A stretch of DNA of 64,000 nt from Candidatus Hydrogenedentota bacterium (GTDB lineage Bacteria > Hydrogenedentota > Hydrogenedentia > Hydrogenedentales > SLHB01). The notes under the pieces were generated by a model. The model had not been told where the DNA came from. It saw only the letters and a list, made by a program, of their open reading frames with translations, and made no database searches. A program made the position numbers and the translations under genes. Shown piece by piece: positions 20,628-33,808 of this stretch (the first letter of the stretch is position 1; every line of letters begins with the position of its first letter). The stretch lies in the NCBI GenBank assembly GCA_963745075.1, contig CAVUWV010000036.1:192001-256000 (forward strand), read 5' to 3'.

Positions 20628-21443
20628 TCAATTGGCGAATGCGTCAGTGCGTGACGACGAATGGCGTCGGCAGTTTGCGATCCCACCGGGCATATCCCGG
20701 AAGGTGTGCCCGGTCCAAATGCGACGGAGGCGACCTGAACCGTCGCTTCCACGAGGGGACTGTGACCGGCTCCGGCCAACGCATGCTCCCGAGCCTGCGG
20801 CCAGACCGATTGCCAGATCACAACCGATTTTTTCACCGCAGTAAACGAACGCTCTCCGCAAACCAGGTCAATCGGGATAGCAAGATCGGAGAACGTTTCC
20901 CAATGCGGCACGCGGCGAAACGCCCGCAACACATCCAGGATAAAGTCGTGGTCCACGTTTTCAAAAGATCTTGTAAGACTGGAATGGCCGGTGCGTTTCT
21001 TTCGCAGGACCGCGTTCGTGAAATGGCGACCCACCGGGTTGGCAAACGTGCTGAAGTACGCGCGTCGCCCGAATTCGCCCCACGTGAAGATTTTGAAATA
21101 GAGCGGCATGTACGCGAACGGATCGATCAGCACTAGCCGCGCCACCCGATCCGGCACTCGTTGAGCCGCCATCATGGCAAGGTTCCCGCCGCCGCAATAG
21201 CCAAGCAGCGTCACGGGCTCGCGCGACACCATGCATATGACGTTCTGCGAGCGCGTCGGCCATCGCATCCAAGGTCCACGCGACGGGTCTTGGCGAAAGA
21301 CCGTACCCCGGAAGGTCGACACTGTACAGCGCGGCCTCCTCCGGCAGATAGGGAACCAGCGGACGGAAGGTGCGGTGATTGCCCGCCCACCCGTGCACCG
21401 CCAGATAGGCCGTTCCACCGGTGCCGTAGGGTTCAACGTGCAC
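20624..21443 (-). CDS. Alpha/beta-fold hydrolase with Cys at the nucleophile elbow; frameshift near 21240
   Basis: HGWAG and DLPGYGLS in one frame, then LLGYCGGG, LVLIDP and GHSP in another. Confidence 0.8.
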
Positions 21444-22953
21444 GGGCCGCGATCCTTTCCGCCGTCAGACGTCCACCGAGGACGACCATGGGCATCCCCG
21501 TCCCCGGCGTGGTGCTCGCGCCCACATAATACATCCCTTCCACGGTGTCGAGATAGTTCTTCGCACGGAAGGGGCCAACTTGGAATAGATTGTGTGCCGC
21601 ACCAAATGCGGAACCGTCGTAGAGCCCGAAAGTGTCGCGCCAGTCTTCGGGCGTGTATACCCGCTCAAACACAATGCGTTGCGGATCGAGTTCGGCTCCG
21701 TGATGGGCGAGCCGTTCCAGCACGCGATTCTTAACCGAGGGGATCGCGCTGCGCCAATCGAAGCCCGGCATTTCACTGAGCAGCGGGGTCGGCACAAGAA
21801 CGAACATGGCCGCATCGTCTGCCGGCGCGAGGTCCGGATCCGTCTCGGAAGGCACGCTCACGTAGAACGGAAGTCCACGGGGAATCTGGTGGTTGCGCAT
21901 GAGATCATCAAAGGCGCCACGATAATCGTCGGGCAAGTAGATCGTGTGGTGAGGCATGCCCTCGACTTTGCCCCGAATGCCCCAGTAGAACGTCATCACG
22001 CCGCAGGTCATGCGCGTGCGGTCCGTTTTGCGTTGGAGGTCCTCTCCCAGTCCATTCGCGGCCAGCAGCATCGTGTCCGTCGTCGGCACATCCACGTTCG
22101 ACACGACTGCGGAAGCCCGCACACGTTCGCCGTCGGCAAGGTCCAACCCGGTAATCCGGAGATTCTCCATCCGGATCCGGCTGACGCGCCGTCCCGTGTG
22201 AATCTCGACGCCCATATCCCGTGCGAGCCGCTCGATGCCTTCGACCAGACCGTAGATGCCGCCTTTGGGGAGCCACAAGCCATACGCCAGTTCGCCATAG
22301 GGCAGGATGGAAAAGAACCCCGGCAATTCGTGGGGGGAGCCGCCCAGATACATGCCGTAGGAACCCAGTGCCTCTTTGATGTAGCGACTTTTGAAAAAGC
22401 GTCCGAGTTCGCTGTATAGCGAACGCCACACGCTGAGCTTCGCCATCTGACGCGGCGAAAGAGCGCCGATCCACTTCAGCGGATTGTCCTCGTTCCGGGT
22501 CACGAGTTTGTCGAAGGCCAGATTGTATTTTGCCGCGGCATCGCGCAGATAACTCAAGACGCCTGGCGTGGAACCGGGATCAATACGGTCGCACTCGGCC
22601 AACAGTTTCTCGAGATTGCTGGACAACGTGAAATGCGTACCGTCCTGCCACTGAAAACTCACGGACGGTTCGACCGGAAGCAAGGTCACGTAGTCCTCGA
22701 GCCGCCGTCCCGCCGCTTCGAAGAGTTCGTGAAACACCCACGGGTAATTCAACAGCGAGGGTCCCGTATCGAACCGGAAGCCAGCTTCCTCGATGACGTT
22801 CGCCCGGCCGCCGACGCGATCGTTGGCCTCGTACATGACGACGTCGAATCCGGCGACGCGAAGATGGATCGCTGCGCTCAGCCCGCCAAGCCCGGCCCCG
22901 ACAATGACGACGCGGCTCTTAGCCTCGGTCGAGGGTGCGTTTGTCGTGCCCAT
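21433..22953 (-). CDS. crtI: Phytoene desaturase
   Basis: GAGLGGL, FDTGPS, PKGG, VGASTTPGTGMPMV; immediately follows crtB. Confidence 0.88.
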   Translation of the reverse strand: MGTTNAPSTEAKSRVVIVGAGLGGLSAAIHLRVAGFDVVMYEANDRVGGRANVIEEAGFRFDTGPSLLNYPWVFHELFEAAGRRLEDYVTLLPVEPSVSFQWQDGTHFTLSSNLEKLLAECDRIDPGSTPGVLSYLRDAAAKYNLAFDKLVTRNEDNPLKWIGALSPRQMAKLSVWRSLYSELGRFFKSRYIKEALGSYGMYLGGSPHELPGFFSILPYGELAYGLWLPKGGIYGLVEGIERLARDMGVEIHTGRRVSRIRMENLRITGLDLADGERVRASAVVSNVDVPTTDTMLLAANGLGEDLQRKTDRTRMTCGVMTFYWGIRGKVEGMPHHTIYLPDDYRGAFDDLMRNHQIPRGLPFYVSVPSETDPDLAPADDAAMFVLVPTPLLSEMPGFDWRSAIPSVKNRVLERLAHHGAELDPQRIVFERVYTPEDWRDTFGLYDGSAFGAAHNLFQVGPFRAKNYLDTVEGMYYVGASTTPGTGMPMVVLGGRLTAERIAARAR

Positions 22954-22957
22954 GCTC

Positions 22958-23959
22958 TCACCACCCCATGTAGGCGAGCGGGAGCCGCCAGTACTTGCTG
23001 CGCGGCAGTACCCTGAATTTCTCGCGCATCGGCACGCTCTCCCGGTGCGCAACTCCGTTCCGACTTGTGCGAATACGTTCGTTCAATTGACCGTACACGT
23101 CGATACAGGCCTGAATTGCCGTCCGGCTGTCCGGTGCGAAAGCGTCCAGGTCCCGTTGCGCTGCCAGGTAATAGGTCGAGGCGACCGTCGCCACGCGATG
23201 AATGACCCTTTTCAGCCCGTGATGTTGTGTGGGGTTCTGGGTGTCTATATGCTCAATCCCCTCTGCCGCCAACATGTCCAGCGGCAAGTACTGCCTTCCC
23301 CTCCGCTGGTCTTCGCCCGCGTCACGGATGAAATTGGTCAATTGCAGCGCAATACCCAGGCTGCGGGCCGCTTCGATCGCACGGCCGAAGTCGGCGGGGC
23401 GCGCCGGACCATAAATGTGCGCCAGAAAGTACCCGACCACGATGGCGCTCCCGTAGATGTACGAGTCAATGAGGTCTTCCATCGTCTCAAAAGACCGAGG
23501 TTCCACGTCCAACCGCATTGCGTCGAGGAAGGCGCGATAATGGTCTTCCGGAATGCCCGTTTCCCGCACCACCCGGGTGAAGGCCCCAAGGAAACAGGGA
23601 ACCCCGTCGTTCACGGCTTCTTGCGTGGTGCGCGCGCGCAGTCCCCGCTCGTAGCTGTCCCGCCATGCGTCCAGTATTCGCAGCCGCTCCGCGGCCGGAA
23701 GAGGGAAGGTGTCAACGACCTCGTCCGGATACCGAACGGCGGCATACACCGCTTCGACTTGAACACGTTTCCGTGGGGGCAGGAATCGCGTCACCGCAAA
23801 GAAGCTGGTGCTGTAGGTCTGCAACACCGCACGCGCCTGCCGGGTGATGACGTCCCGCGCGGCGTCTTCCGTCGCGGTGTGCACCACCCGGCTGCGCATA
23901 CGGTTCTCCAGTCGCACCCAATCCTCAAGCGACCAGATACTCGTGTCGGAGGTTTTCAT
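22958..23959 (-). CDS. crtB: Phytoene/squalene synthase
   Basis: STSFF, YAAVRYPDEVVD, LGIALQLTNFIRD..ED..RGR.YLP. Confidence 0.9.
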   Translation of the reverse strand: MKTSDTSIWSLEDWVRLENRMRSRVVHTATEDAARDVITRQARAVLQTYSTSFFAVTRFLPPRKRVQVEAVYAAVRYPDEVVDTFPLPAAERLRILDAWRDSYERGLRARTTQEAVNDGVPCFLGAFTRVVRETGIPEDHYRAFLDAMRLDVEPRSFETMEDLIDSYIYGSAIVVGYFLAHIYGPARPADFGRAIEAARSLGIALQLTNFIRDAGEDQRRGRQYLPLDMLAAEGIEHIDTQNPTQHHGLKRVIHRVATVASTYYLAAQRDLDAFAPDSRTAIQACIDVYGQLNERIRTSRNGVAHRESVPMREKFRVLPRSKYWRLPLAYMGW

Positions 23960-24279
23960 CCCGTCTCTCCTTCGCCGGTTTGCTTGTTCTCATCTCGCCC
24001 TGCGGACCGATGCTCCGGCGTTCGCGTGATGGGGAGGACCTGTGCGGACTTCCGCCACGCAGGACGGACGGGCTTGCTTTGCGGGAGTCGGAGGTGATGC
24101 GAGGTGCAAGCAAACCACGCACTGAGGGAGACGCGGCCGAATTCTCCCACGGGCTTCGGCCCGCACAGGCCGGGTAGAGAGGAAGCAAACTCATCGCAGG
24201 CGCTGAGCCGGAGCCGAAACCAGCGGCATCGTGGACGCCCAACCAAACCGAATACTCTGTTGCCGCTTTGACTGACCAT
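23956..24279 (-). CDS. Possible hypothetical protein upstream of crtB
   Basis: Its stop overlaps the crtB start (ATGA); no recognisable motif. Confidence 0.25.
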   Translation of the reverse strand: MVSQSGNRVFGLVGRPRCRWFRLRLSACDEFASSLPGLCGPKPVGEFGRVSLSAWFACTSHHLRLPQSKPVRPAWRKSAQVLPITRTPEHRSAGRDENKQTGEGETG

Positions 24280-24312
24280 CTACCGTCTCGACTCTTTTGC
24301 CCAGGATTGTGT

Positions 24313-24341
24313 TGTCTAAGTGATGTCTAAATAACGTCACG
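24313..24341. promoter_or_regulatory. Putative CarH operator upstream of the crt operon
   Basis: TGTCTAA at 24313 and 24324 and CGTCACG at 24335, spaced at 11 bp; reverse complement reads TTAGACA, matching the TnnACA-type repeats of CarH operators. Confidence 0.6.
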
Positions 24342-24538
24342 ATTGTGACACAAGATTCCCGAAAAGGCAAAATTATTCTCCCTCCAACACTCAGATGGTC
24401 CAATTATAGACTTAAATCATTTCATAGCAGTCATTTAATAATTTGAGCCAATACGAATTGGCCCCATCGCCACCGTATCCCGATACTCTTCCAACTTCCC
24501 TTTTTCCATCCGGATTGATTCCTGGTTTCGCCATATTT

Positions 24539-24568
24539 CTAGACATTCATTGAACAAATCAGTATAAC
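24539..24568 (+). promoter_or_regulatory. carH promoter overlapped by operator repeats
   Basis: TAGACA(24540)-17 bp-TATAAC(24563); CTAGACA and TTGAACA 11 bp apart; ATG 7 nt after the -10 box. Confidence 0.6.
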
Positions 24569-24575
24569 TGTAAGT

Positions 24576-25517
24576 ATGAGCAGCGAAAAACGGCATCCCA
24601 TTCAAGTGGTCGCGGCCCAGACCGGACTGACCCAGCACGCAATCCGCGCGTGGGAGCGCAGGTACGGCGCCGTGCAGCCCGCGCGTACCCCGACCAATCG
24701 CCGCATGTATTCGGACGACGATATCGCTCGGCTCCGATTACTGTTGCGCGCGACCCAAGAAGGGCGCAGTGTCGGCCAAGTCGCTCAACTTCCAACCGAT
24801 GAACTGCGCGACCTGCTTAGGGATGTGCCGCGCACCGTAGTCGCCCGTCGCAATAGAATCGACGGACCCCCGACACCAGAGACCTTTCTGGCGAACGCCG
24901 TGCAGGCAGTGGAGGAATTGAATGGAGAGAAGCTTGAAGCCGCGCTCGCGGAGGCCGAGACCAGCCTAAGCCAGGTCCGTGTGATTGAAGATGTGGTTCT
25001 GCCGCTGATCGAGGAAGTGGGAGACCGGTGGCGCATCGGGACTCTGCGCGTTGCCCACGAACATCTGGCCTCGAGCGTCGTGCGCGGATTCCTTACGACC
25101 ATGCGGGTAGGGATGCGCGCGCCGGAGCATGCCCCGGTCGTGGTGTTTGCCACGCCCGCCGCGCAGTGGCACGAACTGGGCGCACTTATGGCCGCCGCCG
25201 CCGCCGGTTTGGAAGGGTGGCGCGTGACTTACCTCGGGCCGAATCTGCCTGCGGAAGAAATCGCAGCGGCAGCTCTCACCGTGGATGCGAAGGTCGTTGC
25301 CCTCAGCATCGTGTATCCCGAAGACGATCCGCTACTGGGACACGAATTGCGGAAACTCCGGAAACTTTTGGGGCCAGAGGTCCTCATTCTCGCCGGAGGA
25401 CGCGCCGCGTCAGCCTACCTTCCCGTGCTGCAGCAGGTCGATGCTGTGCATACACCGGATCTGAAATGTCTTCGGCAAGAGTTGCTGCAGGCCCGCCGCC
25501 CCGCGACCACACAGTAG
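24576..25517 (+). CDS. carH: MerR-family, cobalamin-binding photoreceptor repressor (CarH/LitR type)
   Basis: MerR HTH (IRAWERRYG, RMYS), W-x9-EH (WRIGTLRVAHEH), HELG and YLGPNLP B12 motifs; divergent from crt genes. Confidence 0.88.
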   Translation: MSSEKRHPIQVVAAQTGLTQHAIRAWERRYGAVQPARTPTNRRMYSDDDIARLRLLLRATQEGRSVGQVAQLPTDELRDLLRDVPRTVVARRNRIDGPPTPETFLANAVQAVEELNGEKLEAALAEAETSLSQVRVIEDVVLPLIEEVGDRWRIGTLRVAHEHLASSVVRGFLTTMRVGMRAPEHAPVVVFATPAAQWHELGALMAAAAAGLEGWRVTYLGPNLPAEEIAAAALTVDAKVVALSIVYPEDDPLLGHELRKLRKLLGPEVLILAGGRAASAYLPVLQQVDAVHTPDLKCLRQELLQARRPATTQ

Positions 25518-25518
25518 T

Positions 25519-27420
25519 TCAGTCGCGAGCCCGCGGCGTAATCGTAAGCTCCAGCCGTTTCCCATCGCGCATCACCGCGATGGTGACCGGTTCGCCAATC
25601 TTCAAGGCCTCGATGGCGTACGTGTAGTCGTAAATGTTTTCGATGATCGTGCCGGCAAGTTCGACCACCACGTCGCCGCCTTGTACGCCTGCCTGCGCGG
25701 CCGGTCCACCTTCGGCCACGCCGGAGAGTTTCAGTCCGTTGCCGCTATCCTGTGAATAGTCCGGGATCGTGCCGAGATACGCGCGTAAACCCGCGCCGCC
25801 CTCGCGCTCCGGCGGTTTCGCCTGCGGGATGTAGTCTGGCGCCTCGGCGCATTCGGCGAGGTACGCGGTCGCTTCCGCCATGAACCGGGCGACTTGCGCG
25901 GCCCCGGCGTAATTGATCGTACTGGGCGTGTCGCGCGGCGTATGATACTCCTCGTGCGCACCCGTGAAGGCATTGATGAACGGTACGCCGCGCACGAAGA
26001 ACAACGTCGCGTCGGTAGGCAGATAGCTGTCGTCTTGCGTGGTGACTTGGAGATTGCCCGCCGCCTCGCGCCATTTCGGGATCAGACCTTCCCAGATCGA
26101 ACTCGAACCCACGCCGCCGATGATGACGGACTCGCGCAGACGGCCAATCATGTCCATGTTGACGTACGCGGCGATCGCCGGACGCAACGGTTCGGATTCG
26201 GGGATGTCGCGATAGGTTTGCGCAAACTTCGCCGAACCGAGGAGCCCCAGCTCTTCGCCCGACCACGCGGCAAAGAGGATGTCGCGTTTCGGCTTGAACG
26301 CGCCCGCCTTCTTTTGGTTTACAAGATACTGGGCAATCTCAAACATCCCGGACACGCCGGACGCATTGTCATCTGCGCCGTAATGGATGCGGTTCGTCTC
26401 GTAGTCCCGGGCGAGCGATCCCGTACCCGAACCGCGGCCGAGATGATCGATGTGCGCTCCTACGACAACTACACCCTCTTCGGCTGGGTCGTCCGCAGGA
26501 AGCCGCGCCAAAACGTTGCGGCCCGTGCGTTTCTCCTGGACGATATCCACGTCCACGCGCAGGGTCGTGTCCGGCGGTTCAAAACCCATCACCGGATCGC
26601 CGGTGTCCAATTCGGATTGCACCGCCTCCAACGTGCGGCCCGCCGTGCTCAGCAGGGATTCGCCGACCCGGTCGTCTACCGAAACGGCTGCGATGCTGGT
26701 ACCCGAGAACGACGCGTCGAAACTCAAGTTCACCAGCGGATCGGACACCTTGGAATTGGGTCCGCTCACGAACACGATTCCCAGCGCGCCCCGGTCGCGG
26801 GCAATCATGGCCTTGTAGCGGAGTCCGGCGTACTGGGTGAGGTGCAGTCGCCGTTCCTTGGACACATTCTCCGGGATATACCGGAACACGACGACCCACT
26901 TGTCCTTCACGTCGAGGTGGACGTAGGAATCGTATTCGGGGAGGTCCTCATGTTCCGGCGCGACGATGCCGTAGCCGGCGAACGCAACCGGCGCTTCAAA
27001 TGTGCCCGTTTTCGAGAACGCCACCGGACGCCACGCCTCGTCCACGGGATAACAATCCGGTTCCGGCGCACCGGGCCGCACGACGCATAACTGATTATCG
27101 GGCCCCAACGACGCGCCCGCCGTGAAGTCGAAGGACTGAAACCACGACCCGTCATCGCCCGCCCGTTCCAGGCCCAGCCATTCGAAAACCTCCGCGGCGT
27201 AATCCGTCGCGCGGTGTTCTCCCGGCGTGCCGGTAGAACGTCCCTCCATGACCTCCGAAGCAAGGTAATCCAGATGGAGCCGTATGTCCCCGGGAAGGAT
27301 CTCCGGCACCGTAGTGGCAAGATCCGGCGGCTCCGCCTCCGCCCGCGCGAAGGAGGGAAGCGTCGGGAAAACAAGACACGCTGCAAAAGTGACGAGCCGG
27401 ATAACGCCAGTAGGTAGCAT
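25519..27420 (-). CDS. Secreted M28 family peptidase with PA and PDZ domains
   Basis: GAHIDHLG, GADDNASG, GEELGLLGS, NMDMIG, YHTP; C-terminal YLGTIPDY PDZ. Confidence 0.92.
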   Translation of the reverse strand: MLPTGVIRLVTFAACLVFPTLPSFARAEAEPPDLATTVPEILPGDIRLHLDYLASEVMEGRSTGTPGEHRATDYAAEVFEWLGLERAGDDGSWFQSFDFTAGASLGPDNQLCVVRPGAPEPDCYPVDEAWRPVAFSKTGTFEAPVAFAGYGIVAPEHEDLPEYDSYVHLDVKDKWVVVFRYIPENVSKERRLHLTQYAGLRYKAMIARDRGALGIVFVSGPNSKVSDPLVNLSFDASFSGTSIAAVSVDDRVGESLLSTAGRTLEAVQSELDTGDPVMGFEPPDTTLRVDVDIVQEKRTGRNVLARLPADDPAEEGVVVVGAHIDHLGRGSGTGSLARDYETNRIHYGADDNASGVSGMFEIAQYLVNQKKAGAFKPKRDILFAAWSGEELGLLGSAKFAQTYRDIPESEPLRPAIAAYVNMDMIGRLRESVIIGGVGSSSIWEGLIPKWREAAGNLQVTTQDDSYLPTDATLFFVRGVPFINAFTGAHEEYHTPRDTPSTINYAGAAQVARFMAEATAYLAECAEAPDYIPQAKPPEREGGAGLRAYLGTIPDYSQDSGNGLKLSGVAEGGPAAQAGVQGGDVVVELAGTIIENIYDYTYAIEALKIGEPVTIAVMRDGKRLELTITPRARD

Positions 27421-27481
27421 GTTCGTTCCTTGCAGTAACTCCGAGAAGAAGAGGAGTATAGCATGGCACACGCATCGCCCG

Positions 27482-27510
27482 TTGCGAAATTCGGCGCTCC
27501 GGCGCATAAT
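27482..27510 (+). promoter_or_regulatory. sigma70-like promoter for the radical SAM operon
   Basis: TTGCGA-17 bp-CATAAT, about 70 nt upstream of the ATG at 27582. Confidence 0.5.
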
Positions 27511-27581
27511 GTCATAGAGACGTGGGGAGAGCGTCGTCCTGGACGGTGCAGCACCTACCGGCACATCAGGGGGAAGACCGG

Positions 27582-27929
27582 ATGAAAGCCTTGGGCTATT
27601 TGTTTGCCGGATTCTTGATTGTATTGGGGATGCTGTTCTGTGTGGCCGCCGGCGCCACCGGCCTTTGGCAACGATGGATATTGGGCGGAATCCTTTTGGG
27701 TTCGGGCCTTGCCGTTGTGTACTTCCTGCGCATGAAGACCCCCGAAACCCGCGTTTCCGTCACCCAACAAATCGACCTCACCGGGGATGTCAGCCTCGAA
27801 AAACTGACGTGTAAGAATTGCGGCGCCACATTGGATTCCAAGAGCGTGTCCGTGCGTGCCGGGGCGGTATTCGTGAGCTGTCCCTATTGCGAAACCGAAT
27901 ACCAGATGGAGGAGGCACCGAAATGGTAA
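27582..27929 (+). CDS. Small 2-TM membrane protein with a C-terminal zinc ribbon
   Basis: Two hydrophobic helices, then CKNCG...CPYC; ends EEAPKW; overlaps the next gene by 7 nt. Confidence 0.85.
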   Translation: MKALGYLFAGFLIVLGMLFCVAAGATGLWQRWILGGILLGSGLAVVYFLRMKTPETRVSVTQQIDLTGDVSLEKLTCKNCGATLDSKSVSVRAGAVFVSCPYCETEYQMEEAPKW

Positions 27930-29294
27930 CCACCCTCAAAAAGAAGATGCGCGACATCTTCGGACAGCCCGGGCCGGTCCAACCGGGTCTTTACCACTAC
28001 CAGCGTGAGTTGGCGGATCGGTACATGCGCCTGCATCTGCGAATCGACCCCGACCATACCGGCATGCTTTCCGTGAATGCGTCGGGCGTGCTCCATCTCA
28101 ACGAAACGGCCGCCGCCATGATGAAGCAGGTCCTCGACGGCAAGTCGAAAGCCGACGCCGTAACATGGACGAGGAAAGTCTACCGCGGAGCGAAAAAAGG
28201 CAGCGTCGAAAAGGACTACGACCAGATTCTCGATATCGTGCGGCACTTGGAAACCACCGAAGACGCGTGTCCGGTCTATTCCGTGAACGTTCCCTCCATC
28301 CCGCCGTTTGGCCGCAAACCTTCCGCGCCGTACCGTGCGGATCTCGCGTTGACCTACGCATGCAACGACAACTGCACCCACTGCTACGTTGCGCGCCGGC
28401 CCGAAGACGTGGAGCCCCTAAAGCTCGATGAATGGATTCGAGTACTGGAAAAGCTTCGCGACATCGGTGTGCCGCACGTATGCTTCACAGGCGGCGAAGC
28501 CACGGTCAGCCCGCATCTCAGGGATCTTGTCGAGAAAGCGGAAGACCTCGGCATCATCACGGGGCTCTTGACCAACGGGCGCAAGCTCTCGGATCGTGAG
28601 TTCACCAAGCGCCTGTGCGACGCCGGTCTTGACCACGTGCAAATCACGATCGAAAGCCATGACGAAATGGTCCACGACCGCATGGTGGACACGGAAGGCG
28701 CGTACAAGGAAACGGTCGAGGGGATTCGCAACGCCCTCGCGGAAGACATCTACCTCGTCACCAATACCACCTTGTGCGCGCTTAACGCGGACGACATCGA
28801 AGAGACTATCGAATTCCTGCACGGCCTCGGCGTGCGGCAGTTCGCCATGAACTCCTTCATCAACACGGGACGCGCGCCGAAATCGGGTCTCGGCATCGAC
28901 GAAGCAGGATTTGGAACCCATCCTGGGACTCGTCACGGAGAAGGCCGACGAGTTGGGGATGCGTTTCATCTGGTACAGTCCTACCCAGTATTGCGTGCTG
29001 AATCCCGCCGAAATGGGCGTCGGATTCAAACGCTGCACCGCCGCCGAATACAACATCTGCATCGAACCCGACGGTGCGGTCCTGCCGTGTCAGAGTTACT
29101 ACAAACCCGTGGGCAACTTCCTCAAGGATGACTGGAAATCCATCTGGGAAAGCCCCTTGTTCCTGGCGATTCGCAACCGAACGGAACTGCCGGAAGATTG
29201 CCGCGAATGCCCCGACATGGACGTCTGCGGCGGCGGATGCCCCTTGAGCGGCGGCGATCAGTTCCTGTGTTCGGACAGTCCTTCGGAGGGATAG
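27923..29294 (+). CDS. Radical SAM/SPASM enzyme with an N-terminal PqqD-like RRE; frameshift near 28907
   Basis: RRE-like LHLNETAAAMMKQVLDG..., CNDNCTHC, FTGGE; SPASM CTAA..NICIEPDGAVLPC...CRECPDMDVCGGGC; the two frames join after removing one G. Confidence 0.9.
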
Positions 29295-29298
29295 CGTG

Positions 29299-31139
29299 AT
29301 GAAACGCCTCGCACTTGTACTCATCCTAGCCGCCGGGCTTGCCGTCGTTGCGCACGCGCAAAACTATCGCTTCGCCATTCCCGAGGCCGAAGTCACGGTT
29401 ACCATCCAACCTGACGGTGCCGCGCTGATTCAGTACCGGCTGACATTCACGTGCCGGTCCGGTGCACATCCCATCGAACGTCGTAGATATCGGCATGCCC
29501 AACCTGTCAAAACACTCGCCCGGCGGCGCCACGATCGACGGTAACCCAATCCCGCAAAGCAGCGTTCGAATTTCGACCTATCTCAAACCGCGCGGCTCCG
29601 GGTATGAGATCCAACTTGGCCGGCACACGATCCGGCCCGGCCAGACCGGCGTCTTCGAGTTCACGGCGCGCGAACAGAATATGGTCTGGCAGGACACGAC
29701 CAACCCGGACCTGGCATCGTTCCGGTTCACCCCGACCTGGTTTGGTTCCCAATTTGTCGATGGGACCACCCGCTTGACCCTGCGCTACAAGCTGCCAATC
29801 CCGGCGGCGCAATATCCTGCCGCGAAGGATCAAATCCTGTGGCAAAAGAAGGGGCAGGACTTCGATGTCAAAGGCGTGATGGAAGGCGAAGACGTCGCCT
29901 CGGTCGCCTGGGTGGATACCGTGCGGCTGACGGGCCCCCACGAATACGGCGTCTCCTTTCCCAAGCGCTTCGTGACCAACGTGCGGAAAGACTCGATCTG
30001 GGGCCTGTTCCTGCGCTGGTTCAAGGGGAATCCCGACGTCGCAATTCATGAGCGGCGTCGCATTGCTCTTCGTGTTCAGCATCTGCTTCTTCATGCTGAC
30101 CCGCGGCACGGGGTTCGCCCTCTACATTATCGCCACGGCGGGGTTCATCTACGGGATGTACCAGAGCGTCGTGTTTCATTTGTGGTTGTACCTGGCGATG
30201 CTCGCGCTTGTGTTGCTCGTATGCCTGATGCGGCAGCGCCGCAAACGCCGGTACTTCCCGGCCGAACTGTGCCGCGAAGGCGGTGGGTTGAAGCGCGGCC
30301 TGACCGCGGTCGAAGCCGCCATCCTTCTCGAAATCCCCTTGAACAAGATCTTGACCATGGTGATCTTTGGACTCGCCAAGAAAGGGCTCATTGAAGTCCG
30401 CGAAGAAGACCCCATGCGCATCGAAGTCGTCGCCACACACCGGAAATTGCGGGTCTGGACCCGGCCGGACGGAAAAGACGTAAAGATCTGGCCGTTCGAA
30501 GAGTCGTTCCTGCGGATCTTCAAGGACCAGCACGACAAACCCGTCGAAGCCATGAAGTTGGACGAACCGTTTGACGCAGTCATCGAGCGGGTCGTCACGG
30601 CCATGAAAGGGTTTGATCTCAAGGCCACGCGCGAATACTACCGCAGCATCGTCTCGCGCGCTTGGATGATGGTCGAAACGGAAGCGGGATACGAGGCCCG
30701 CTACCAACGGCTCGACCGCCACCTGGAATGGCTGCTGATGGACGATTCGTGGGACCGCCGGTTGAAGGATACCACCGCGGAAACGCCCTATTACCCCAGT
30801 TGGTGGCACGGGTACGGACAAAGCCACGGACCCGTCTTCGGTGGTGGCGTCGCTCCAACTATTCCGTCCGGCGGCACTACGCCGTCGACTTCTTTTGGCA
30901 ACGTCGCCAGTTCCATTGTGGGCCGTTTCGAAGGCACTTCCAGCCGCGTCGTGGGAAGCCTCGACGCGCTTTCTGGCTCGACAGCCGGGACCATTAATCT
31001 TTCCGGTCTTGACAAGTTCACCGGAGAAGTCTTGAGCGGTTTGGCCAAGGGCGGCGGCGGAGGCGGCGGGGGTGGGGGCTGCGCGTGCGCCTGCGCCGGG
31101 TGTGCGTGTGCCTGCGCCTGTGCGGGCGGCGGACGATAA
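29299..31139 (+). CDS. DUF2207-like membrane protein with a poly-Gly plus (Cys-Ala)n C-terminal tail; frameshifts near 29477 and 30041
   Basis: Signal peptide, V.VTIQPDG, exported domain ending GVSFPK, three TM helices, GLTAVEAAILL, LAKKGLI, tail G9-CACACAGCACACACAGGGR. Confidence 0.8.
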
Positions 31140-31147
31140 GGATCGTC

Positions 31148-31786
31148 ATGCCCGCGCCCGAAGAATTACGCGCCATCTATCGCGGGCAAGCGGAGTGGTT
31201 CGCGGGTGAACGCAACCGGCTCCTGCGCAAGGCCGAGATCGCGCGGTGCCGTCGCGTCCTCGATCTCGGGACCGGCACCGGCGAACTCCTGGAAAACCTG
31301 GATCGGCGGGCGGCCGGGTTCGCCGTCGGCCTCGATGCCGACGGCGCCGTATTACGACTGGCCCGTGGCCGACGGGTTAACGCTCGGGCCGAATCATTGC
31401 CGTTCGCGGACAACGCGTTCGATGTAGTCTTCACCCAAATGTTCTTCCTGTGGGCGTCACCGCTGGAACGTGTCCTCGCAGAAATCTTCCGTATCCTTCA
31501 TCCGGGGAGTATTCTAATCGCCGCAGCCGAACCCGATTACGGCGGCGCCATCGAATATCCGGAAAATGACGCCGGAGCAAAGTCCTTCGAAACGCAACTG
31601 GCACGCGACGGTGCCGACCCGCGCGTCGGCCGCAAGCTGGACGAGGCCATGCGGCGCACGGGATTCGACGTGGAATGCGGCGTACACACCGCGCGCCCTT
31701 TGGAGCGAGCGATAACGGGAACCATTGAAGATGGAGCGTTCTTGTACGTTCCCTATTTTCATTTTCTGGGATGGAAACCCGCGTGA
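31148..31786 (+). CDS. Class I SAM-dependent methyltransferase
   Basis: VLDLGTGTG, AESLPFADNAFDVV, RILHPG motifs; starts 8 nt after the upstream stop. Confidence 0.9.
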   Translation: MPAPEELRAIYRGQAEWFAGERNRLLRKAEIARCRRVLDLGTGTGELLENLDRRAAGFAVGLDADGAVLRLARGRRVNARAESLPFADNAFDVVFTQMFFLWASPLERVLAEIFRILHPGSILIAAAEPDYGGAIEYPENDAGAKSFETQLARDGADPRVGRKLDEAMRRTGFDVECGVHTARPLERAITGTIEDGAFLYVPYFHFLGWKPA

Positions 31787-31825: not shown

Positions 31826-32269
31826 CTACCCCTTGTCGCGATACGCGGCGGTAACCGTGCTGGCAAGTCCGCCACGGGGATTGCACGTGATGACAATCTT
31901 CATGTGCCGCGGTTGGCAGGCCTTGACGAGATCGTCGAGCATGCGGTTCACGAGGTGTTCGTACCAGATCCCTACGTCGCGGTACGAAGTGAGGTAGTAC
32001 TTCAACGAACGCAATTCAAGACAATACCGGCCCGGGGTGTACGCGATCGTCACCTGCGCGAAATCGGGTAGGCCCGAGAACGGACAGACCGACGTGAATT
32101 CGTCGGTCGTGGTCACGATTTCCATGGGTTCGCCGACGGGCTTGTCCGCGTACGCGTACTCGAAGCACTCCAGGCAACCCGCGTCGATAGCTTCGGGTCC
32201 TTTGAACGGGAGGGTCTTGTCATGGGCCTCGAACCGATCCCGGACCGGGTTCGCGGGTTTGTCAGGCAT
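31826..32269 (-). CDS. queF: NADPH-dependent 7-cyano-7-deazaguanine reductase (type I)
   Basis: EFTSVCPFSGLPDFA, ELRSLKYYL.SYR, PRGG. Confidence 0.92.
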   Translation of the reverse strand: MPDKPANPVRDRFEAHDKTLPFKGPEAIDAGCLECFEYAYADKPVGEPMEIVTTTDEFTSVCPFSGLPDFAQVTIAYTPGRYCLELRSLKYYLTSYRDVGIWYEHLVNRMLDDLVKACQPRHMKIVITCNPRGGLASTVTAAYRDKG

Positions 32270-32287
32270 CAACGAATTCCTTCCTCG

Positions 32288-32986
32288 TCATTGGCCCCGG
32301 TAAAGGCACCGGGCCGTGCAGGTTTCCGCCACCACCACTACGGACAGGTCAGGTACGTTCGGCTGCAATTGGTTCCAGATGAATCGGGCCACGTGCTCCG
32401 ACGTGGGGTTGGACAGGTCCTCGATCTCGTTCAGACACCGATGATCGAGTTGGTGATATACGTCGGGCAAACGGTCGCTTAGATGCATGGTTTCCGCCGC
32501 ACCCACTTCCGCAGAAAAGCTGTGGCCGTGCATGCGCCGGCACTTGTGGGTTTCCGGCAGGTTCGGCAACGCGTGCGCCGCCTCGAACCCGAATCGAATG
32601 CGCGGTGGAAGGCTGTACGTCTTCTCCGCCGCCACCGGCACCGCGTGGTACACACATTTCCCGATGATGCACACGTGTACGTCCGTCTTCGCCGTTGTCT
32701 CAAGGTCCAACCGCGCAGCGATCCAGTCCCGAACGCCGCGGACTGACGTATCGTGCAGTCCCTCCACATCATCCAAATCGACGTGGTCCAACTGGCGGTA
32801 CAACGGCTCAAACTGCCGCGTAATATCGCCATAGTCAATAAGCCATCCGAGGTTCGGATCGCATTCGCCGGAAACGTGTATGTCCACGTGGTAGCTGTGT
32901 CCGTGCAATCGGGGGTTGCCCCCCTCCGCCGGCCTCGTACGGTGAGCCGCTTCGAATTGATACGATTTAATGAGATCGACCTTCAC
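32288..32986 (-). CDS. queD: 6-carboxytetrahydropterin synthase with a tandem-duplicated domain
   Basis: FEAAH...HGHSY and FEAAH...CRRMHGHSF, LDH, NPTSE. Confidence 0.85.
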   Translation of the reverse strand: MKVDLIKSYQFEAAHRTRPAEGGNPRLHGHSYHVDIHVSGECDPNLGWLIDYGDITRQFEPLYRQLDHVDLDDVEGLHDTSVRGVRDWIAARLDLETTAKTDVHVCIIGKCVYHAVPVAAEKTYSLPPRIRFGFEAAHALPNLPETHKCRRMHGHSFSAEVGAAETMHLSDRLPDVYHQLDHRCLNEIEDLSNPTSEHVARFIWNQLQPNVPDLSVVVVAETCTARCLYRGQ

Positions 32987-33697
32987 CTACACTCCCTTCC
33001 GATCCGGCGGCCAGATAAACTTGTGCATCTGAAGCTGGAACCGGACGTCGAGCCCGTCTTCGAGAATCCATTCCACGAGTTCCTGCGGATCGACCGAACC
33101 AAGCACCGGCGAAAACAGCACCGCGTGGCAGCGTGACGGCAAATTGTGATCGCGGACTACCTCCCGGCTCCACTCGTAATCCTTCCGGCCGGCAATAACG
33201 AATTTCACCTCGTCCCGCGGCGAGAGCCGGTCCAGATTCGACCAGTCATTTTTGTCGCACTCGCCGCTGTCCGGACATTTGAGATCCATAATTCTTATCG
33301 CGTCCGCAGGTAACCGGTCGATGGGCAGCGCGCCGCTTGTCTCGCACAAGACCGTCATGCCGCGATCGAGCAAGCACTGCGCGAGCGTGGCGCACGCCTT
33401 CTGTAGCAAGGGCTCCCCGCCGGTAATCTCGACCAGAGGACAGGCAAGCTCGAGACACCGATCGACGATCTCGCCGACTGTCATCTTCGCACCGCCGTGA
33501 AATGCGTATTCCGTGTCGCACCAGACGCACCGGAGAGGGCACCCCGTTAACCGCACGAAGATGCACGGCAACCCCGCCCAGGTCGATTCGCCCTGCACGG
33601 ATTTGTAGATCTCCGTGACGGTCAGCGTGGCGCTGAGCCGAGGTTCGTCGTTGTCAACGATGTCTTTCGTAAGTTCGGTGTTCTCTATGGATTGCAC
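32987..33697 (-). CDS. queE: 7-carboxy-7-deazaguanine synthase (radical SAM)
   Basis: EIYKSVQGE, FVRLTGCPLRCVWCDT, TGGEPL, QLQMHK; start (GTG after GGAG) is uncertain. Confidence 0.92.
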   Translation of the reverse strand: MQSIENTELTKDIVDNDEPRLSATLTVTEIYKSVQGESTWAGLPCIFVRLTGCPLRCVWCDTEYAFHGGAKMTVGEIVDRCLELACPLVEITGGEPLLQKACATLAQCLLDRGMTVLCETSGALPIDRLPADAIRIMDLKCPDSGECDKNDWSNLDRLSPRDEVKFVIAGRKDYEWSREVVRDHNLPSRCHAVLFSPVLGSVDPQELVEWILEDGLDVRFQLQMHKFIWPPDRKGV

Positions 33698-33808
33698 GCC
33701 ATACTCCGATCCGGAAATATATGTCCCCGCAATGCGTATCCCCATAATCGTTGATCATAGCACGAAAATGGCATGGCACGCGCATCCGAGCCCAGAGAAA
33801 AAAGCGGA

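Follow-up and report, generated by a model that had tools for sequence, protein, structure and literature searches.

The locus

The window, i.e. the whole stretch of 64,000 nucleotides that was analysed, carries a compact cassette on its forward strand, with gaps of 8 nt or less between genes. The cassette starts with a zinc-ribbon protein of 115 aa (27582..27929), which has a hydrophobic N-terminal hairpin, the pattern CxxC...CxxC and the end EEAPKW; its matches to zinc-ribbon profiles are weak and under the cut-off. The stop codon of this gene overlaps the ATG of an RRE-radical SAM/SPASM enzyme (27923..29294), whose gene is split in the assembly by one extra base near 28,900. Next comes a membrane protein of about 613 aa (29299..31139), split by extra bases at 29477 and about 30040, which ends in a flexible Gly linker (31050..31079) and a Cys-Ala tail (31080..31139). 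A class I SAM-dependent methyltransferase (31148..31786, PF08241 above cut-off, only remote relatives in the PDB) begins 8 nt past the stop codon of the tail and is a candidate second tailoring enzyme.

We assessed the composition of the cassette in the 47 of 79 long loci that have at least 5.5 kb on each side (roomy loci). Of these 47, 42 have an active enzyme, 43 a zinc ribbon and 33 a methyltransferase; for the five loci without an active enzyme, one is encoded elsewhere in the genome. A cysteine-less (dead) paralogue of the enzyme that keeps the RRE occurs in 34/47 roomy loci, and such paralogues take two separate positions in the enzyme tree. Clustering of the ORFs of at least 80 aa from 80 loci revealed no conserved small precursor or other substrate. 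In one Asgard clade (L205-L213) the cassette is split over two loci, one with the enzyme and the methyltransferase and the other with the zinc ribbon and the membrane protein; the tail of this membrane protein is CACACACVSCACACAGGGR.

Several other genes lie near the cassette. A conserved protein of about 114 aa, presumably PAS-like, stands between the enzyme and the dead paralogue in 11/47 roomy loci (L005, L014, L017, L052 and others). An SPFH/Band 7 protein with a double zinc ribbon is encoded directly upstream of the cassette in a single genome, G097 (L153:4505-5698, reverse strand); it was rejected as a cassette member, being found in 0/47 roomy loci. In the window, genes for QueF, a QueD-like protein (two PTPS stretches) and a radical SAM protein, QueE-like by context, converge on the cassette from the reverse strand (31826-33745). 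On the other side, a peptidase with a C-terminal PDZ-like part (25519-27564, reverse strand) is divergent from the cassette, with 17 nt between the called starts. Neither the Que group nor the peptidase was found beside the cassette in six relatives. Further upstream (21433-25517) lies a CarH-like B12-binding regulator (E 5e-35, under the cut-off), and we take the genes divergent from it to be a phytoene synthase and a desaturase.

Reading frames and assembly

The tail is in frame with a preceding ORF of 363 aa, whose identity to intact homologues (616 aa, with the same tail) is 72%, and the closest named homologues of the membrane protein come from Candidatus Hydrogenedentes. In tblastn searches the intact homologues align to the membrane gene over three frames. 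These alignments and the open frames in relatives agree on where the reading frame ends, which is where the original prediction had placed its end.

Three extra bases have no partner in the alignment to a congener, one near 28,905, one at 29,477 and one near 30,039 (30,039-30,041), which makes three frameshifts inside 1.2 kb of assembly. This density speaks for a reading in which the tail is a microsatellite, an assembly artefact or the end of a decayed pseudogene, as does the break in the enzyme gene (about 28,900), which no short-read contig crosses. We give this reading next to no credence. The short-read contigs (run X3, depth about 2) lack the extra bases at 29477 and 30041. In rpoB, too, the sequence is broken into three frames (G000:C8:415741-419522; L123, L124), so indel errors affect essential genes in this assembly. 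Finally, among the 30 relatives examined, the six with a match have a membrane gene open at 611-636 aa (6/6) and an intact enzyme gene (6/6). Hence, the three frameshifts are most likely assembly errors, and we rejected a pseudogene. As the genes of the window are broken by the extra bases, the intact proteins of the congener (G003, locus L132) were used for the structure and complex models.

Architecture and predicted topology of the membrane protein

The AF2 model of the congener protein (mean pLDDT 83) has a signal helix first and a disordered end last. The first domain is a predicted extracytoplasmic beta-sandwich (approximately 29362..29965, mapped from the congener) that resembles ribophorin I/Ost1 and the N-domain of M1 aminopeptidases (6c26_1: Z 14.6, rmsd 3.1, 182 aligned). 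It is followed by three predicted TM helices and the basic cluster RQRRKRR (30040..30251, from the congener model and hydropathy), then by a predicted cytoplasmic GOLPH3/Vps74-like domain (approximately 30297..30810), whose match to 3kn1_A has a middling score (Z 7.9, rmsd 4.0, 155 aligned). In the congener, the helices span residues 245-267, 272-288 and 290-313, with pLDDT of about 92-98. A fourth helix at 340-358, indicated by hydropathy, was rejected, since the model assigns this segment to the GOLPH3-like domain.

The signal peptide, the three TM helices and RQRRKRR, from which a cytoplasmic C-terminus had been proposed, were thus all found, in a gene that is itself cut by two extra bases. 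The topology predicted from the congener model and from hydropathy agrees with that proposal and places the tail in the cytoplasm. Short-type homologues mostly have one hydrophobic segment ahead of the same basic cluster, and long-type homologues have three in the model, although a simple hydropathy scan often counts two. One and three are both odd numbers, consistent with a cytoplasmic C-terminus.

Some loci encode variants of this architecture. L045 and L075 have tandem tailed membrane paralogues, one with a single TM segment and the other with two or three, that share one enzyme. Five proteins of 766-838 aa (P0159-P0162 and P0164) have two profile matches each, and in P0159 the ectodomain is duplicated. 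In a single case, the 948-aa P0255, a cysteine-less enzyme paralogue is fused to a tailed membrane protein; this fusion may be a read-through artefact.

Conservation of the Cys-Ala tail

Positions 31050-31139 translate to GGGGGGGGGG-CACACAGCACACACAGGGR-stop. The seven Cys of the original prediction are there, but the run before them has ten Gly, not nine. The ten-Gly run, a flexible linker (pLDDT < 50), is replaced by variable Gly/Ser stretches in homologues. The Cys-Ala tail, CACACAGCACACACAGGGR-stop, is likely the modified core. The mixed codons that had been noted in this region are present (TGC/TGT, GCG/GCC and four Gly codons). A degenerate pattern back-translated from the tail has a single match in the window, against 0/100 shuffles with a match, even at 3 mismatches.

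Scanning the GTDB genomes with a DNA pattern yielded at least 122 loci with the tail. We counted the spellings in 123 tails from the listed loci, leaving out one duplicate locus. The 39-nt core of these listed tails has 122 distinct DNA spellings and uses all synonymous codons, and 121/123 terminate in GGGR-stop, which the scan pattern did not require. Since the 123 listed tails have 122 distinct spellings and the GGGR end is kept, selection acts on the protein, as originally proposed. The codon variation led us to reject a microsatellite or a motif at the DNA or RNA level, and it counts likewise against the tail being an artefact.

The searches for homologues gave the same picture. All of the 120 listed matches of a first search end in the CA tail, with a query that included the tail. 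With an ectodomain-only query, blind to the tail, it stands at the end of 76/77 matches, one of them with a Cys-to-Trp change, and the sole tail-less match, a protein of 384 aa, comes from a contig of 1.2 kb. A profile built without the tail matched 1178 clusters at 50% identity; of the best 150 cluster representatives, 122 have the CA tail and 28, perhaps not all of them fragments, stop early or out of frame. A tail-less homologue was looked for among complete genes and none was found. The conservation of the Cys pattern across homologues, on which the original prediction depended, is supported by these matches, by the best 150 representatives and by the Asgard homologues described below.

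Homologues differ in how many CA units precede the internal Gly, and this Gly may be Ser or absent. The shortest forms are CACACAGGGR and CACAGGGR, so that the constant part is the C-terminal (CA)n-GGGR. Ala directly precedes 1288 of the 1551 internal Cys in 271 CA tails; the same holds for 314/356 Cys in 32 tails of a sister type, CHSA, described below. Selenocysteine variants were searched for at the last two Cys positions: TGA at the last Cys gave 0 matches and TGA at the second-last gave two, both by chance in unrelated DNA, so that no real variant was found at these positions. The end of one tailed gene (CACACAGGGR) also turned up at the edge of an IMG/VR contig (L221:5001-5033, reverse strand), probably in host flank.

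The radical SAM enzyme

The enzyme passes the radical SAM profile PF04055 (94 bits, cut-off 29.5) and the SPASM profile PF13186 (44.3, cut-off 21.5), and is just below the cut-off of PqqD, PF05402 (21.6, cut-off 23.4). Its modelled N-terminus has the shape of an RRE, with strands at 33-40, 46-50 and 54-58 and helices at 60-70, 75-86 and 90-109. The cysteines of the CxxxCxxC motif (C145/C149/C152) are invariant in 66/66 enzymes. Seven Cys of the SPASM region are invariant in 66/66 enzymes of CA-type loci and in 29/29 sister enzymes, while Cys377 is found in 60/66 CA-type enzymes and is Ser in 29/29 sisters. The closest solved relatives are SkfB, SuiB, CteB and PqqE, the first three having the closest folds. 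The enzyme passes no named NCBIfam equivalog cut-off (best PqqE, 114 of 381 bits) and fails the sactisynthase and ranthisynthase families (SkfB 92 of 300, AlbA 80 of 850 and StsB 71 of 625 bits). Together with its partner it behaves like an RRE-dependent maturase system, but one outside the named systems.

Co-occurrence of tail and enzyme across genomes

In the 126 genomes of the phylum of the window, all nine strong membrane matches, obtained with a profile that included the tail, have an orthologous enzyme (9/9). This membrane count is a lower bound, as most CHSA homologues escaped the stricter criteria applied at first. A second-tier enzyme occurs in 13 more genomes, always beside a distant membrane homologue (13/13), and these 13 homologues end in (CHSA)n-CVSGGSH or a close variant. 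Among 111 genomes of Anaerolineae (the class of Ornatilinea), the tail-free profile found the membrane gene in 34, and the enzyme is present in 34/34. Fifteen strong membrane genes match 15 strong enzymes there, with the tail read only at L048, the locus of the cultured Ornatilinea apprima, 19/19 weak membrane matches have CHSA tails, and one further enzyme lies at a contig end. A tail-blind search of 101 Asgard genomes (the phylum of a Heimdallarchaeota genome) found the enzyme in 32/32 genomes with the membrane gene; the 30 loci that were read contain 23 complete homologues, 23/23 Cys-tailed (14 CA, 9 CHSA). As kin are not independent, all these counts overstate the co-occurrence, and they carry no statistical test.

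The enzyme occurs without a membrane match in six genomes, one of which has a distant CHSA-type neighbour. In five Asgard genomes with the enzyme, neither tail nor membrane gene was found. Four of these five also lack the orthologue of a control gene from the flank, and the fifth has a contig end just past the zinc ribbon; assembly gaps plausibly explain these exceptions.

The CHSA sister loci (L138-L150, L155-L173, L196-L204 and L211) encode homologous membrane proteins and an enzyme clade of their own. We built a quick tree of 68 enzymes, for which 26 short-tail enzymes were drawn at random and every second enzyme of the CHSA type was taken. The CHSA enzymes from two phyla cluster on a single branch (SH-aLRT 100), separate from the CA enzymes that these phyla also encode (support 93), and the long-tail CA enzymes do not resolve cleanly from the short-tail ones. 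In this tree, tail type tracks the enzyme clade, not the host.

Predicted docking of the enzyme on the membrane protein

Right after the last TM helix, about 280 residues upstream of the tail, lies a juxtamembrane strand, YFPAELCRE (30252..30278), which is a candidate internal RRE recognition site. Its Tyr is invariant (111/111 and 83/83 aligned sequences), and the strand is disordered in the monomer model. The form in the family is Y-L/F-P-P/A-x-hydrophobic, and most CHSA homologues have W/Y-x-P-P-R/K/E-I/L. The RRE recognition motifs already described include YxxP and W/Y/LxxP, which pair with strand 3 of the RRE (PMC12710340). The motif of the window, YFPAEL, is without the Pro of YxxP, which is found in 60/83 family members and 15/111 close ones.

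We modelled the complex of the congener enzyme (1-448) and its membrane protein (312-616) with three clusters and SAM. The model scored 0.78 and the best of 3 controls 0.00; this mark is reached by 116/157 solved and 2/215 mismatched pairs, a calibration that is only approximate for this model. The runs share at least 57% of contacts, with a partner pLDDT of at least 71. RRE residues 53-62 contact residues 321-326 of the partner, and the pairs of lowest error come from RRE residues 56-62 (strand 3) and linker residues 121-124. The interface also lists tail residues 605, 611, 614 and 615 and barrel residues 185, 238, 277, 306, 347 and 349, unpaired in the output; Q238 and Y349 of the barrel are invariant. 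The RRE of the enzyme is thus predicted to dock on the YxxP-like juxtamembrane strand. The score may reflect likeness to solved RRE-leader complexes and not binding.

That the best-supported predicted contact joins the RRE to the juxtamembrane strand, and not the tail to the active site, would also suit a membrane protein that is a scaffold or sensor tethering the enzyme. The substrate would then be a lipid, a small molecule or another protein, and the tail would regulate or plug the site. Docking without catalysis does exist, given the cysteine-less, RRE-bearing paralogues of 34/47 roomy loci. Yet the closest solved relatives of the enzyme are peptide maturases, the conservation of the tail is far above what a plug needs, and no dead paralogue was found in the genome of the window (89.7% complete) or in the loci of its relatives. 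We regard a scaffold as quite improbable.

A model of tail maturation

The original prediction offered two roles for the tail, a crosslinking substrate or a metal or Fe-S binding site. Under the second, the thiols stay unmodified and bind metal or Fe-S, while the enzyme acts elsewhere or uses the tail as a relay of clusters, electrons or sulfur. Six to eight Cys on a flexible linker fit this role, sister tails are also rich in His, and the zinc-ribbon partner stays with the membrane gene in the split cassette. In addition, seven invariant SPASM Cys would leave one iron for a thiol of the tail. Simple ligation, however, needs neither near-invariant Ala spacers nor a fixed GGGR end, and it leaves unexplained why tail type follows the enzyme clade. 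Nor was another conserved substrate seen in the loci among the ORFs of at least 80 aa that were clustered. We consider an unmodified metal site unlikely.

We favour a tail that is the substrate of the adjacent enzyme because of their co-occurrence, the tracking of enzyme clade by tail type and the predicted RRE docking. In this main reading, to which we assign a probability of roughly three in four, the Cys-Ala tail is the core of a RiPP-style modification for which an entire membrane protein serves as the substrate and the RRE-radical SAM/SPASM enzyme as the catalyst. The substrate half of the original alternative is thereby preferred; the support covers modification, not the form of a crosslink. 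Three membrane crossings would bring tail and enzyme together in the cytoplasm. The RRE would grip the strand just after the last helix, some 280 residues before the tail, and the Gly linker is predicted to let the C-terminus reach the active site. There the enzyme would oxidise the Cys residues one by one, and a second step probably falls to the methyltransferase. The result may be a rigid, sulfur-rich and probably metal-binding tail on a receptor-like protein. A role in metal sensing or buffering at the membrane is our guess.

A thioether is the commonest outcome for Cys cores with enzymes of the RRE-radical SAM/SPASM type. If the tail is modified, a Cys-to-carbon thioether is most likely, at slightly better than even odds; a thiooxazole-type heterocycle would be a distinctly weaker candidate, and other products together a little weaker still. 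The possible thioether acceptors in the tail are Ala, Gly, Cys or Arg only, with no Asp, Glu or Gln. The Ala-Cys unit common to CA and CHSA tails would also fit a thiooxazole.

A broader scenario is tentative, and we would not bet on it at even odds. Chloroflexota, Planctomycetota, Hydrogenedentota and Asgard archaea may share a receptor-like family matured by dedicated radical SAM enzymes that read an internal juxtamembrane 'leader' and turn the terminal ladder, whether Cys-Ala or Cys-His-Ser-Ala, into a poly-thioether or poly-thiooxazole signal that binds metal. MNIO chemistry would then have an oxygen-free counterpart, in which the methyltransferase is the second writer and the dead copies read or regulate.

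There are few demonstrations of radical SAM chemistry on substrates of protein size, and our searches turned up none that concerned an integral membrane protein or a recognition strand within the chain. If the main reading is true, a chemistry of the peptide-antibiotic type is applied to a whole membrane protein, in a system that is widespread (1178 clusters at 50% identity, one third of the Asgard and Anaerolineae genomes sampled). With nothing but Cys, Ala and Gly in the core, a new reaction could be required, e.g. lanthionine formation by a radical route. A direct test is feasible, as the membrane segment can be left out when the cytoplasmic part (about 312-616) is co-expressed with the enzyme.

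Comparison with known systems

A search of the open literature found no paper describing the tail-enzyme system. We compared it with its closest counterparts. The original prediction called the membrane protein DUF2207-like. A remote likeness stands, in faint profile matches and in the nearest language-model clusters, and one CHSA-tailed sister passes PF09972; membership does not, as no CA-tailed member was seen to pass a Pfam cut-off. The N-terminal piece of the window protein scores 15.3 against DUF2207 (PF09972/PF20990; cut-off 24.4), the intact congener has no match, and PF20990 matches 2/83 family members at E ≤ 0.01.

The enzyme shares with SkfB, SuiB and CteB, its top matches in fold and sequence, the order RRE (three strands, three helices), barrel and SPASM, but at only 16-23% identity and far under the family cut-offs. 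The substrates of these three enzymes are short peptides with an N-terminal leader. Here, in contrast, the Cys core is on a 600-aa protein, and no short precursor was seen among the ORFs of at least 80 aa.

Thioether (ranthionine) links have been demonstrated on a protein in the CrpC/CrpA system of Methanococcus voltae (TIGR04463; PMC13692751). There too, an RRE-radical SAM/SPASM enzyme with seven SPASM Cys stands beside a protein-sized substrate that is Cys-rich at its C-terminus (PMC13692751). CrpA is a 28.8 kDa protein with N-terminal recognition and C-x-x-Q/D motifs (PMC13692751), whereas our candidate substrate is a membrane protein of 600 aa, whose recognition strand is predicted to be internal and whose Cys-Ala core offers no acidic acceptors of the kind used by CrpC. 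The best 25 NCBIfam matches of the enzyme do not include TIGR04463. Another radical SAM/SPASM enzyme, SbtM (TIGR04082), turns Cys into thiooxazole (PMC11002830); unlike SbtM, the enzyme of the window reaches 67 of 350 bits on TIGR04082 and fails. Thiooxazoles are tied to copper binding in MNIO products, and captophorins, which are multi-thiooxazole peptides, are linked to copper detoxification (PMC12668002 and, for the former point, PMC12538549).

The nearest published parallel is formed by the TIGR04222 membrane proteins, whose Cys/Gly/Ser tails are predicted to be periplasmic and whose genes adjoin MNIO (DUF692) enzymes (PMC12452194). The window protein fails TIGR04222 (16.6 bits, cut-off 43), and 7/83 family members match it at E ≤ 0.01 (best E 9.7e-9). 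In both cases, a membrane protein has an unstructured, Cys-bearing C-terminus proposed as the substrate of a neighbouring enzyme (PMC12452194). What sets our system apart from the TIGR04222/MNIO pairs is its radical SAM partner, its near-invariant tail and the predicted cytoplasmic location of its C-terminus.
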